From NCBI RefSeq assembly GCF_009931435.1, contig NZ_CP043414.1: DNA of 64,000 nucleotides; one strand, written 5' to 3'. The position numbers are program-made. The stretch is from Escherichia coli. Its GTDB lineage: Bacteria > Pseudomonadota > Gammaproteobacteria > Enterobacterales > Enterobacteriaceae. Below, in pieces: positions 15,001-20,585 of the stretch (position 1 is the first letter of the stretch; each line of letters begins with the position of its first letter).

Positions 15001-18000
15001 TTAAAACCAGTTTCCTTGTGTATTCTTTCTAATACTTTATGGACGTAATGCCAAGATCCCATATCAAGTAATTTTGCAAGTTCAGATATGGTGTAGGGAT
15101 AGCTTGCGTTAAGTGCTTGACCATTATTTAACTCTGCAATTCCATAAAGTTTCGCTAACACGTTATCTTGCTCAGCAATGTTCTTAAGCATTTCAAAATC
15201 ATATGGAAGCTCTTGTTTTACAAGAGATTGAGAGGCAAATGTATAGGTTCTGGCTAATAGCGCCCTGACTAATTTTGGGTTAACACTGATTTCTGGCGTA
15301 TTTGACGATAGGGCATCATAAATCCAACCGAAATCATTGGCATAGATCACTTTGATTCGGATGCTTTTATTTTCACCAACACCAATCAAAATCTCTTTCT
15401 GGTGTGAACCTGTACCTTCACATTCTGGACTAAAGGAAACCAAATAAATATTCGGAATCAAAGCGTTATTCGGCGCAATTATCTCATCAATATCAGACAG
15501 GATGGCTTTAATATTCTCATCATTAATACTATAGCCAATGAAGAACAACGGATGCTCGACGAAATATGTTAAAAGTTTTGCACTGATATACTTTTTACGC
15601 TTATAAAACTCAACATAATCTTCATTTGTTATAATGATGCTTTCTGGTTCTTTACTACTGCCGTGAATCTTCATGATTTCACCGTATGTAGTATAGTTAA
15701 CAGTCACAACATTATGGCCAACTATCGGTTGGTAGTTATCAAATATCTTTTCAAGCAGATCGTCATAGTTTGTTGTAATAATGGCATGGGGCCTTACTTT
15801 TTTTAACTTTTCAATTTCTTCAGTGTACTCCATTGCTGAAAAATCAACCGAGTCTGAAAGGTTATTCAACAATGTTGCAATCTCATGCTTGATATAAATA
15901 TCTTTAGAGCTTTTTCCATTGAAATACTGTTCAGGATAACGAGATGTCCCCACATCCCAAGCCCACTCAGCGTATGACTCAGAAAAATCACTTGCTATCA
16001 ATGGTTTATTGTCATTTCTTGTTTGACTGTAGTAACCATACGGGCGAGTGATTAATGGGCAAGTTTCAGCGAGATACTTTAACAGGTTTTCCCAATCAGG
16101 AGCTTTCAAGTAGCGTTGAGATACCCCTGCACCCATAAAGAGAATTGGCTGTACCTGTAAACCTTCAAGACATGATTTGATATCTTCAATTATTTCTGTC
16201 TGATATTCAGAGAAGTCCATACTTTAGCCTTTAGGATGTGAGATGCTGGAGTAGTAAATCGCCGCGGAGCGGTTCGGGGTTCTGTGACACTCGAATTTTA
16301 CCTCGGTTATATAATATCATTGAAGTTATTTGCATTTCTCAGAAATCTTCTCTGGCTTTAATTGCTATAGCCGAAAGATAGCGCACACATCGCCGTTGGT
16401 CAGTTAGTACGAGGTTTCCGCCAAGTTCACCTTTTACCAAAGATGGCTTCAGAGCTTCCCTGAAGCTTTATCATGGCTTCAAGTAGGTCATCTTCGTTCA
16501 GTGAGCGCTGAGATTTGTTGATGCTAGGGGCGTGCCGTCTGCAGGAAGGCTCATCACCAGAACAAGGTAACGATTGTGAGCGATTATTGTCCCGTTTTGT
16601 CTGGATCTGACGGGCAACATCCAACACATGGCCAAGTCTCTTGTTATCTACAATGGCGACGCTCTCAACCTCAGAAAGCCGGTCATAGGTGGAGTAGGGC
16701 AGCAGCATGCCATTTAGTCGCAGCTCCTTATGTCCGTCAGGATAATGCCAGACATCAATGTACTTGCCGATGGCTCTTCGACTGTATTCGCTGTCCTCAA
16801 TCAGATAGAGGATTTTATCGTATTGTACAGTCAGACTTTTTGATACACGCCGGGGCTCTCGCCAGGTAAATTCCGCATCAAGGTCATCGTCTAGTGCCAG
16901 TGGCCGGTGCGCGTTAAAATCATGCAAGGGCGCTTTGGCAAAGCGTCGGTTGTAATCCGCAATGTATTCTTCTGCAAATCCATTGGCCGCTTCTATAGTA
17001 CAGATTCCCCTAAGCCTGAGTTCCTTAACCAGCCGGTCCTGAAGGGTTAGATGAGCACGTTCCACACGGCCTTTTGCCTGACTGGTTTCTGCGCACAGCG
17101 GTGTGATATTGAGGGAGCGCATGGCCCTGGCAAACTGAGTTTCACCGGGACCGAGGGTAGCATGCTTATTGTTTACCCGGAAGACATTGGCTTTGTCGCT
17201 GTAGAGGATCATGGGCTTACCATGTTTTTCGATATAGCCAAGAGTTGCTTCAAAATAGGTAAATGTGGATTCAGATTTCACAAACAGCAAGTGCATCAGG
17301 CGACTGGTGGCATCGTCAACATAGACAAGAGCTGTACAGGGTCGACCCCGGTTTTCAAACCAGTGGTGGTCACAGCCATCAATTTGTATCAGCTCGCCAG
17401 TACAAGGCCGCCGGTAACGAGGCTGATGAATTTTAGGTGCGCGCTGTCTGCGTGGGATCCAGAGTCCGGCTTTTATCATGAGACGTCGGATGGTTTCTTT
17501 GCCAAGGACCAGACCGTGAACTTCCTCCAGTTTTTCCCGCGCCAGCGTGGGGCCAAAATCACGGTATTGCTCCCTGATTATACTGAGAGCCTGATCTGTC
17601 AGTGACGCTGGCAACAGACGGTTACCAGTGCGGCCACGACTCTGGTTGTTCATGCCAAGCGGTCCGAGTTGACGATAGCGTTTCAGCAGTCGGCTGCAAT
17701 GACGTGGTGTAATGCCGAGCATCTCCGCAGCTTGGCCAGGACGCAGATTGCGATCGATGACATCCTGAAGGATTTTGAGGCGGTTGATTTCTTTCACGTT
17801 GAACATCCCGGCGTCATGTATAGCCATAGAAAACTCCTCATCAGGAAAAGTGAGTCGTTGTCTAGACATACAGGTCTGAGAACTATAGCCTGGACATTCC
17901 AATGAGCCACAAATAGACATTAGCATTGAGCCTCTACAATGTTGGTGCGCATAATGTATATTATGTTAAATAGCCTACGATGGTAAACAACTTCATATCT

Positions 18001-20585
18001 CTCCATTGCCTCTCACGAAAGGAACTGGACACACTGATCAAGCACGAATTACAACTGATGCTGGCTGAAGGCTTTGACAAGTCCCCTATTTCCGCCAAGG
18101 CCCTGCATATTCGGCTCAAGGCAAAAGGTATCGTTAACGGTGGTTTAAGTACGCTGAGCAGCCTTGAGCGAAAACGCCTAATTGCTGCCTATGTTGATCA
18201 GCAACTTGGCCCGTTGAATCTACGCCCAAAAGAAAAACAGCAATACGTCAACCGCAAAACCCGTCAGGCCTTGCTGGCCAGAAACCAGCAGTTGCAGGCG
18301 GAAGTCAGAGAACTGCAAGACCAACTGGCGCAGAATACCCTATCGTTGATAGAAATTGTCAAAGCGGTAAAAATCAATACGGTTATTCCGGTGGAAAGTC
18401 TGTTGCCAAACATGTAATTCGGGAGTTACACAAGTCGTCATAATGCTGGTTATAATTTTCGGCAAAGGGTATGGACGATTTATTTCCGTCATTCTGTATA
18501 TTGCTTACCTTCCCAAATTTCTCCAACCGTTAGTTGGAGAAATTAGATGAGTCGTAAATCATGAATAAACCCCTTGCTCTATTCGAAAAATGAGCATGGC
18601 AACTTTCAACACCCCCTCTTCTGAGTCCATTATCTCAGAGGGCGTTTTCCACTGTAATGCTCTGTTTGGTTCATTGCACCAGTTTAATGCTGCACTTTCG
18701 TTACCTTCAAAAAGATCAATAGCCTTTTGAAGAACATCATTTTTTGTCAGCATGTTTTACACCTGAAGACGTTTTGAGTGCTTCGATAAGACTACTTCGC
18801 TCTTCCTCTGTCATCCGGGATATGAGCAATGCAAGTTCTGCTGTTGTCTGATCATCACAAAAAGGCACGTTTAACTCTGCCGCCATCCGTCGAATCGTAT
18901 CAATATCGGGGACATGGCGCCCTTTCTCATAATGATTCATACGACTGCTAGCCGATGCGGGATCAAAGCCAACATGAAGAATTGATAATTGCCGTGCCGA
19001 GCAGAGAAAATGAATTCCGGAAACTTTCTCTTGAGCAAGATAAAACACATATTAAGATAAATGAAAAAATAAAAACACTGATTAGGATTGGTAATAAAAA
19101 TATTACAATAAGGCAATGAATTTTAAAAAGGATTTGAAGTTTAATACAGTCATGAAAAAGAGAGGGCAAAGCCGACCCCGCCCTCTCCCTTCATGCACTG
19201 ATAAGCCTCACTAATAGGAGTGTTAGCAGCGCGTACCACTGTATGCTAGACCTGAAAAATATAATCTCAGCCAGTCCCAGATGCAACCTTTAACACTTCA
19301 ACGCAACAAATTAAACAACGAATAGCCACAAACGTGTAGACAGTGCACTGATACGGATAAAAGTAACGCTCCTGAATTGCTCAATCAATGATATATACCC
19401 TGTTTTACTGACATATCTGACAGCGGGTGGATTTCCTTCAATTATTGATATAACACCATACGCACTACATCTGTCTCCACCAGAATATGAGGTGAAATTG
19501 TTGCGCACCGGTTAATCCGGGTGTACTGGTCAAACTGTTTTTACGGTGCGCCTGTTTTATAGCCTTCAGTTGCGCAATGCGTCGACTTCGCATGGTTTTC
19601 CTCATGACTGCCGCTTTATCATTGCGCAATTCGCCGATGTAGTCGGTGCCCCCCGGAAAATCAAACGGTTCTGGTTGTTCTCTGTACTGCTTCAGGGCGT
19701 ATAGTCCGATACCTCAGCAGACGGGTTTTCCCCGGAGCGAGGCCTCTGGGGTTCATAATTAATCGTACAGCCAAAGTACCAAGCGTTCGGCCGGCTGGGC
19801 GGCCGGCTGGGCTTGCTGGTCAGTTTGTTCCAACACACATTAAGCATCTCCAGTCCGCTGGGCAGGCGGTCCGGCAGGCTGGTCAGCTGGTTATTACTCA
19901 CATCAAGCACCTTCAGCCTGACGGGCAGCACCGGCAGATGGATCAGCTGGTTATTACTCACATTAAGCGTCCTCATATAGCCGGGCAGCTCCGGCAGGCT
20001 GCTCATGAGGTTAAAACGCACATCAAGCGTCACCAGCCCGGCGGGCAGCGCCGGCAGGCCGGACAGCTGATTATTACTCACATCAAGCATCACCAACCCG
20101 GCGGGCAGGACCGGCAGGCTGCACAGCCGGTTTCTACTCACATCAAGCTTCTCCAGACTGGCGGGCAGCACCGGCAGGCTGCACAGCTGGTTTTTACACA
20201 CATAAAGATGCTTCAGCCCTGCGGGCAGGACCGGCAGGCTGTCCAGCAAGTTTCTTCTCACATAAAGCTCCTCCAGCCCGGTGGGCAGCTCCAGCCCGGT
20301 GGACCTGAAGAGATTGTTTCCACCCACATTAAGGTGCTTCAGCCCGGCGGGCAGGACAGGCAGGCTGCACAGCCGGTTTCTACTCACATCAAGCTTCTTC
20401 AGCCCGGCGGGCAGGACCGGCAGGCTGTCCAGCAAGTTTCTTCTCACATAAAGCTCCTCCAGCCCGGTGGGCAGGACCGGCAGGCTGCACAGCTGGTTTC
20501 CACTCACATCAAGCTTCTCCAGCCCGGCGGGCAGCTCCGGCAGGCTGGTCAGCATCAGATTTGCCAGTTCTAGTTCCAGTGCTGA

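Follow-up and report, generated by a model that had tools for sequence, protein, structure and literature searches.

An open reading frame beside dif in Escherichia coli is probably a relic of the fourth gene of a GInt-type genomic island

Introduction

What is the 145-amino-acid (aa) open reading frame (ORF) that occupies positions 17980-18417, on the plus strand, of a 64,000-nucleotide stretch of an Escherichia coli genome (contig NZ_CP043414.1; the whole stretch analysed is called the window here)? The initial annotation, made from the sequence alone, had described a frame with no recognisable domain and a heptad-like C-terminal region, convergent with an antitoxin-like gene. It had proposed that the frame might be cargo of the adjacent insertion sequence (IS), a phage-type regulator or the remnant of a former operon partner, or a spurious ORF should it have neither homologues nor an expression signal. 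We propose here, with a probability of roughly 0.85, that the ORF is a decayed and inactive relic of the fourth, ginD-equivalent gene of a GInt-type mobile genomic island.

GInts carry the genes ginABCD and have been described by Bardaji et al. (2017, Sci Rep 7:46254) and surveyed by Nonaka et al. (2023, Mob DNA 14:7). In Pseudomonas, neither circularisation nor integration takes place unless all four gin genes are present; part of the catalytic motif is missing from GinC, which is mostly annotated as hypothetical, and GinD is a small protein without domains (PMC5385486). A C-terminal coiled coil has been reported for GinD and for Srap, a protein of the elements called SEs, and the share of replicons with a GInt has been given as 7.5% for Escherichia, 39.5% for Pectobacterium and 12.5% for Aeromonas (PMC10214605).

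Homologues and operon context of the small protein

The coordinates and the orientation first given for the ORF are correct, and so is the statement that it has no recognisable domain. No curated family was matched, the best E-values being 0.08 in Pfam, 0.03 in NCBIfam and 0.03 in PHROG, and all of these sub-threshold matches sit on the coiled-coil stretch. Such matches of the ORF and of its intact counterpart (bHLH, HALZ, FtsB, DUF2935 and phrog_3507) were discarded, and Pfam and NCBIfam scans revealed no enzyme domain in the small protein. The heptad-like region stood up as well: the a/d residues read L-V-L-L-N-L-I-V over residues ~104-131, a score reached by only 16 of 500 shuffled sequences. 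The AlphaFold2 model of an intact homologue (mean pLDDT 87), obtained as the initial annotation had suggested, supports the coiled-coil helix, with helices within residues 2-69 and a single 40-residue helix spanning residues 84-123. As modelled, the intact small protein is composed of an N-terminal four-helix domain of helix-turn-helix (HTH) or winged-helix-like type and a C-terminal leucine-zipper helix, and in the family alignment Asn92 and Asn109 are invariant within the zipper.

By megablast, the region of the ORF was detected in 37 of 5,426 complete E. coli genomes. The intact small protein has 142 homologues at E <= 1e-3, and a profile search with its family recovered 102 cluster representatives (50% identity). 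In E. coli 214-4, E. whittamii, Aeromonas and Acinetobacter the intact homologue is 144-148 aa long and is the product of the fourth, translationally coupled gene of an operon that encodes an integrase, a second integrase, a GinC-like protein and the small protein. The E. coli 214-4 homologue (WP_001214165.1, 144 aa) is encoded by the last of four co-oriented and overlapping genes, in the order hipBA, dif, integrase (466 aa), integrase (516 aa), hypothetical protein (788 aa) and hypothetical protein (144 aa). Both integrases match the Pfam family Phage_integrase; the 788-aa protein matches no Pfam family and an integrase PHROG weakly. Acinetobacter pittii and Aeromonas veronii have the same four genes followed by other downstream genes, and in Acinetobacter and Aeromonas a different gene stands 3' of the small gene (metallophosphoesterase, IS3), with the upstream recombinases unchanged. 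Elements of different species share no homology beyond the stop codon of the small gene.

Using a profile built from an 18-sequence alignment and one genome per species, we found 38 related loci, in Escherichia, Enterobacter, Pectobacterium, Citrobacter, Klebsiella, Xenorhabdus, Acinetobacter, Psychrobacter and Moraxella. In 25 of the 27 dif-linked loci the interval between dif and the small gene holds three long frames (about 450, 525 and 790 codons). A 147-aa close variant of the small protein (86% identical) occurs on at least 1,000 Enterobacterales contigs, and an intact ginC-ginD-like block is present in 186 of the 5,426 complete E. coli genomes. Conservation and synteny thus place the many homologues in a conserved four-gene operon, and because both homologues and synteny are abundant the ORF is not a spurious frame. 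A phage-type regulator finds no support, as there is no significant PHROG match and the conserved neighbours are always recombinases. Of the origins first proposed, the remnant of a former operon partner comes nearest: lost partners do exist, but they are the upstream ginA-, ginB- and ginC-like genes and not the antitoxin.

The cargo of the E. coli 214-4 island (locus L053, 6249-17495) includes genes for a 772-aa ATP-binding protein and an AlbA-family DNA-binding protein, together with a thymidylate synthase, MazG and metallophosphoesterase gene cluster, interspersed with IS elements; its content looks defence-island-like.

Decay of the copy in the window

Decay was mapped by alignment to E. 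coli 214-4 and to the closest intact element, that of E. whittamii (locus L014). The features on which the reading depends are the following.

17944..17971, + strand: dif site of 28 bp, the attL core; GGTGCGCATAA-TGTATA-TTATGTTAAAT (XerC arm, central region, XerD arm)
17972..18020, + strand: island left-end remnant, 49 bp, non-coding, with the layout of the left end of the E. whittamii element
17980..18417, + strand: the reported ORF, 145 aa with an ATG start; probable chimeric pseudogene
18019..18443, + strand: ginD-like DNA, from codon 4 to the ancestral stop codon (18441-18443)

The ATG of the ORF at 17980, 9 bp from the end of dif, is fortuitous and lies inside non-coding island-end DNA. 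Codons 1-13 of the ORF consist of this DNA, codons 14 to ~142 are homologous to residues 4 to ~132 of the 144 in the intact protein, and the final three codons are out of frame. At the deletion junction, which has a 2-nt AA microhomology at 18019-18020, the island left end is fused to codon 4 of the small gene, and therefore about 5.4 kb with the three recombinase genes has been deleted. Further downstream, the loss of 1 bp after 18405 has put P-N-M in place of the conserved C-terminal tail (A-x-H-x-I-R-E-L...), and PGAP tags the same arrangement as a 'frameshifted' pseudogene. The deletion junction is common to 20 E. coli genomes, and similar random decay is seen at three further loci (L015, L044 and L049). 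Since the copy in the window is without its partner genes, native start, tail and island right end, it has no recombination role and the island is fixed in place. In sum, a deletion of about 5.4 kb took ginA, ginB, ginC and the first three codons of the small gene, a 1-bp deletion took the conserved tail, and the right end of the island was degraded. The ORF itself is, on this reading, a dead relic that explains nothing of host physiology.

The dif site and the island ends

The 28-mer GGTGCGCATAATGTATATTATGTTAAAT at 17944-17971, which we take to be the E. coli dif site, is a single exact match in the window, where none would be expected by chance, and the same 28-mer adjoins hipA in K-12. The presence of a perfect dif at this position means that the window covers the replication-terminus dimer-resolution locus beside hipBA. 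A dif-like 28-mer on the same strand, with the island set against its XerD arm, is found in 27 of the 31 loci with enough upstream DNA, typically 5.35-5.46 kb 5' of the small gene. Direct contact of the left island end with the XerD arm was seen in E. coli 214-4, ET915 and E. whittamii, and likewise in Aeromonas veronii (ACTGCGCATAATGTATATTATGTTAAAA) and Acinetobacter pittii (ACTTCGTATAATGTATATTATGTTAAAT). Counted from the end of dif, positions 21-25 read TTCAT in 25 of the 27 loci; in the window the motif lies at 17992-17996.

Comparison with K-12 allowed the island ends to be defined. Directly 3' of dif, K-12 has CATGTCTGAG, and in E. coli 214-4 this post-dif flank reappears about 27 kb downstream, after ...ATGAACTGGATTCTCACACAACATAAGTTAAAT. 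The attL of E. coli 214-4 is dif itself (...TATGTTAAAT), and its attR is ...TAAGTTAAAT, after which comes the K-12 post-dif flank; attR ends in ACATAAGTTAAAT. The heptamer common to attL and attR, GTTAAAT, is the outer 7 bp of the XerD arm and probably constitutes the overlap region. The island ends carry inverted A[G/C]TTCAT and ATGAAC[T] motifs, and the right-end core of the E. coli 214-4 type is also present in E. whittamii, A. towneri and A. tjernbergiae. With dif, attR has only the 7 bp GTTAAAT in common (9 of 13 positions) and it has no recognisable central region, so that the crossover is placed in the outer XerD arm, away from the central region of dif. No second dif-like site was found at the right ends of the loci, which argues against an attP of the classical IMEX type. 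An uninterrupted K-12-type junction is found in at most 3,672 of the 5,426 E. coli genomes, a figure that is an upper bound. In the literature searched, we found nothing relevant that links GInts to dif, or that describes hipA together with dif and an integrase.

In Klebsiella grimontii (L023, 56-83) and Acinetobacter sp. NIPH 2699 (L034, 3619-3646) the dif-like sites next to the islands have canonical XerC and XerD arms and the non-canonical central regions CATTGT and CAACAT, respectively; these could be secondary sites, or some exchange could occur through the central region. Filamentous-prophage genes lie on the XerC side of dif in Aeromonas veronii (L007, 1-2063; RstB, Rep_trans) and in Acinetobacter pittii (L005, 1035-2575; Phage_CRI/G2P), so that here a classical IMEX-type neighbour and a recombinase-encoding island flank the same dif.

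Relationship to GInt islands and other recombinase modules

As comparators we used the GInt of E. coli ECONIH5, for which ginC and ginD are among the entries listed in Additional file 10 of Nonaka et al. (2023), and the SE of E. coli 214-4. Bardaji and colleagues searched for GInts with BlastP at E < 0.1 over three consecutive coding sequences. In our BLASTP comparison the dif-adjacent proteins matched GinA, GinB and GinC of the ECONIH5 GInt with E-values of 3e-11, 4e-10 and 9e-13, and the dif-type GinC also matched GinC of pTROUS1 (2.6e-12). The fourth gene was linked through a 132-aa fourth-gene product of a Pseudomonas aeruginosa megaplasmid. It matches the profile of the small-protein family over its whole length (probability 98.6%, E 1e-15, 123 columns) and, over ~46 C-terminal residues, the listed GinD proteins WP_019486613.1 (E 5.6e-7) and WP_001062149.1 (E 1.6e-5); judged by these matches, it appears to bridge two GinD-like sequence families. 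The archetypal GinD proteins of P. stutzeri (WP_043942113.1) and P. syringae (WP_003379740.1) are, by their coordinates, also 132 aa long. Three genes of the operon are demonstrably GInt-type and the fourth is indirectly linked, and for this reason we file the ORF as a GinD-equivalent remnant. On the P. aeruginosa plasmid concerned (NZ_CP095921.1; L054, 6417-6815), the 132-aa ginD-type ORF follows a GinC-like gene and is missing from the gene table.

Several points weigh against this reading. When the small-protein family was compared directly with the listed enterobacterial GinD proteins, hhalign returned a probability of 7% and an E-value of 0.005, and this for the coiled-coil part only; comparisons with a single Srap sequence and with GinD of pTROUS1 were not significant either. 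The GinD link therefore rests on one intermediate and about 46 C-terminal residues, a match that could be biased by coiled-coil composition. Promoter-like hexamers at 17926-17962, just 5' of the ORF, suggest that a truncated protein might still be made. Finally, XerCD may contribute to the integration of the dif-type clade.

The wider architecture is that of GInts. The intact dif-type relatives have a recombinase operon at one end, with the same left-end order of two recombinases, a degenerate recombinase-fold protein and a small coiled-coil protein of ~130-150 aa, the same start of the cargo immediately 3' of the small gene and the same short (10-11 nt) imperfect flanking direct repeats, in addition to homologous GinA, GinB and GinC proteins. 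The host range of the small-protein homologues agrees with the published GInt hosts, Pectobacterium, Aeromonas, Escherichia and Klebsiella being shared. Of the operon, the window itself keeps only the truncated fourth gene, and of attR only the core at 23423-23435. Differences are also evident: GInts in the literature are inserted at an ABC-transporter gene, ssb, nrdA, HU and other targets, whereas the dif-type islands use the XerD arm of dif; GinC has ~790 aa in the dif-type islands and 624-744 aa in GInts; and the small protein and the listed enterobacterial GinD family have different N-terminal domains. No protein or genome accession of a dif-type element, and no E. coli genome with an intact operon of this type, was found among the supplement entries of Nonaka et al. 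(2023) that were covered, which included a part of Additional file 10. The dif-specific clade seems to be a variant of GInt islands that has not been described before.

SEs (intA-tfp-intB-srap) likewise have four core genes, a recombinase-fold protein without the catalytic motif, a small essential coiled-coil protein (Srap), site-specific integration and imperfect terminal inverted motifs. However, their degenerate protein comes second in order and not third, as in the dif-type islands. IntA, Tfp, IntB and Srap of E. coli 214-4 showed no match to the dif-type proteins by BLASTP or hhalign, and the dif-adjacent locus is missing from the complete SE list for this strain. Membership of the SEs was ruled out by the gene order and the lack of similarity to Tfp and Srap. 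Authors writing on GInts and SEs have put forward TnpC of Tn554 as the equivalent of GinD and Srap. It too is a small protein, the third beside two tyrosine recombinases, and it stimulates integration and sets its orientation; Tn554 differs in being an element of Firmicutes without a GinC-like or Tfp-like gene.

Proposed role of the small protein and of the islands

Considering these relatives together, we suggest that the intact small protein is most likely a DNA-binding, dimeric accessory factor of recombination. The suggestion is based on the two invariant zipper asparagines, on the accessory role demonstrated experimentally for GinD of GInts and Srap of SEs, and on the role ascribed to TnpC in the papers on these elements. 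Intact islands carry at their left end an operon for two tyrosine recombinases, a GinC-like protein and the small protein, followed by variable cargo. According to this model, members of the clade would integrate at GTTAAAT, the outermost 7 bp of the XerD arm in chromosomal dif. The N-terminal domain of the small protein would contact DNA, and its zipper would form a dimer and help to assemble the recombinases on the A[G/C]TTCAT ends and the XerD-arm target, in both integration and excision. Integration would rebuild dif at attL and leave a right end that carries ...ACATAAGTTAAAT. Tandem arrays would then form because dif is regenerated, so that new islands can insert again.

Taken together, this would describe a clade of GInt-type islands in Enterobacterales, Aeromonas and Moraxellaceae that has so far escaped description and whose own modules insert at the 7 bp of the XerD arm, rebuild a perfect dif and stack, independently of XerCD and with the small protein directing or assembling the recombinases. 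We offer this broader proposal tentatively and put it at a little under even odds. If it is true, the flank of dif is a self-renewing landing pad for cargo, which in the loci seen includes genes of defence and toxin-antitoxin type. The family itself shows that the variable dif-side region of E. coli downstream of hipBA is built by site-specific islands that target the XerD arm, regenerate dif, stack and subsequently decay. It lends a widespread 'hypothetical protein' a name and a probable role, and the islands provide a natural test case of a recombinase module, with a degenerate third subunit and a small accessory protein, that recognises a site also bound by XerD.

Alternative explanations

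The genes on either side of the ORF bear on two of the alternatives. To the left lies an IS with its transposase gene at 16427-17926 on the minus strand (ISNCY/IS1202 family; NCBIfam transpos_ISNCY_2, E 1e-141), and to the right a convergent 64-aa ORF with an Xre/MbcA/ParS C-terminal domain at 18559-18753, also on the minus strand (Pfam PF09722, E 1e-10).

14746..17938, - strand: IS1202-family (ISNCY) element, 3,193 bp, with the transposase gene and a SIR2-like passenger gene (14868-16220)
18559..19048, - strand: split Xre/ParS-type antitoxin, the first cargo genes of the island; C-terminal-domain ORF (18559-18753) and HTH ORF (18737-19048)

That the ORF could be a passenger of the IS is suggested by the distance of only 42 bp between them and by the fact that IS1202-family members can carry passenger genes. 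However, the IS stops at 17938, a boundary set by its inverted repeats, TGTCAAAGCTCAGTG and TGTAGAGGCTCAATG, together with a target duplication of 5 bp (ATGTT; 14741-14745 and 17939-17943), and the SIR2 gene is its passenger. The ORF does not lie between the inverted repeats: it starts at 17980, past both the duplication and dif. It is also present without the IS in some E. coli genomes, and its homologues are always linked to recombinases and not to this IS. We regard an origin as IS cargo, the first proposal of the initial annotation, as refuted by the boundaries of the element. Scarcely more probable is a lost toxin or co-regulator partner of the convergent antitoxin remnant. Here the two genes lie side by side, an arrangement kept in some E. 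coli islands, and an identical split pair is annotated 3' of the small gene in E. coli 214-4. Against it, the ORF contains neither a RES nor any other toxin domain, the orientation is convergent, and in Acinetobacter and Aeromonas it is the downstream gene that changes and the upstream recombinases that stay. More serious is the possibility that the truncated ORF still works, as a domesticated small DNA-binding or coiled-coil regulator of the cargo genes or, in trans, of related islands. About 128 of the 144 residues are kept, including the whole N-terminal domain and the zipper, the identical deletion junction recurs in the 20 E. coli genomes, and the promoter-like sites could drive expression. 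Yet translation would have to begin at an ATG provided by chance by non-coding end DNA, with no evident ribosome-binding site and with the native translational coupling to ginC gone, and the product would lack the conserved tail lost to the frameshift. The pseudogene call by PGAP and the comparable random decay at the three other loci point in the same direction, and we consider a working gene quite unlikely.

A different kind of alternative concerns the whole family, which could consist of IMEX elements integrated by the host XerCD, with the small protein acting as a Xer activation factor like XafT of the TLC phage. IMEX elements (the CTX, VGJ and TLC phages, the gonococcal GGI and EcloIMEX/EludIMEX of Enterobacter) likewise integrate at dif, regenerate it and form tandem arrays at the terminus. 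[quoted passage not shown] The dif flanks in the Enterobacter loci of the dif-type islands are not setB/yeiP, which gives no ground to equate those elements with the dif-type family. IMEX elements, however, have no recombinase of their own and a dif-like attP with a central region, whereas the dif-type islands encode two tyrosine recombinases with Pfam integrase domains as well as a GinC homologue. Their attR retains GTTAAAT and no central region of dif, which puts the crossover in the outer part of the XerD arm, and GInts depend on all four of their genes. Integration by XerCD as the mechanism of the family is therefore unlikely in our view, and we favour GInt-type islands with their own recombinases.

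Tandem islands and other features of the window

Downstream of the ORF, the first island remnant extends from 17972 to 23435 and is followed by a second.

23423..23467, + strand: tandem junction; right-end core of island 1, ACATAAGTTAAAT (23423-23435), then the left end of the second island, CATATTGACTGTTAACTTACTTCAT
23436..27101, + strand: second island remnant, with its right end lost; K-12-type chromosome from 27102

The right-end core is directly joined to a new left end, which resembles the Klebsiella grimontii type, and the window therefore contains a tandem array of two decayed islands. Tandem junctions are also found in E. coli 214-4, A. towneri, Acinetobacter sp. NIPH 2699 and Enterobacter sp., and the combination of a right-end core with a new left end indicates tandem insertion into a regenerated dif. 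An attR with the K-12 post-dif flank is absent from the window because the segment has been deleted. In the split antitoxin, the C-terminal-domain ORF and the HTH ORF overlap by 17 bp, and there is no RES toxin gene near 18559-19048.

In 206 E. coli genomes the IS on the other side of dif is covered over 80% or more of its length, and in some of these it likewise lies beside dif. Targeting of dif/xrs is known for the ISAba32 subgroup of the IS1202 family (PMC10132070; bioRxiv 10.1101/2022.12.17.520857). Like the islands, these IS elements target dif, and the target duplication of 5 bp puts the window's copy directly beside the XerC arm, in keeping with what is known of the subgroup; unlike the islands, they are DDE transposons, situated on the opposite side of dif and unrelated to the ORF. 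The dif site of the window thus has dif-seeking mobile DNA on both sides, the IS on the XerC side and the island on the XerD side.

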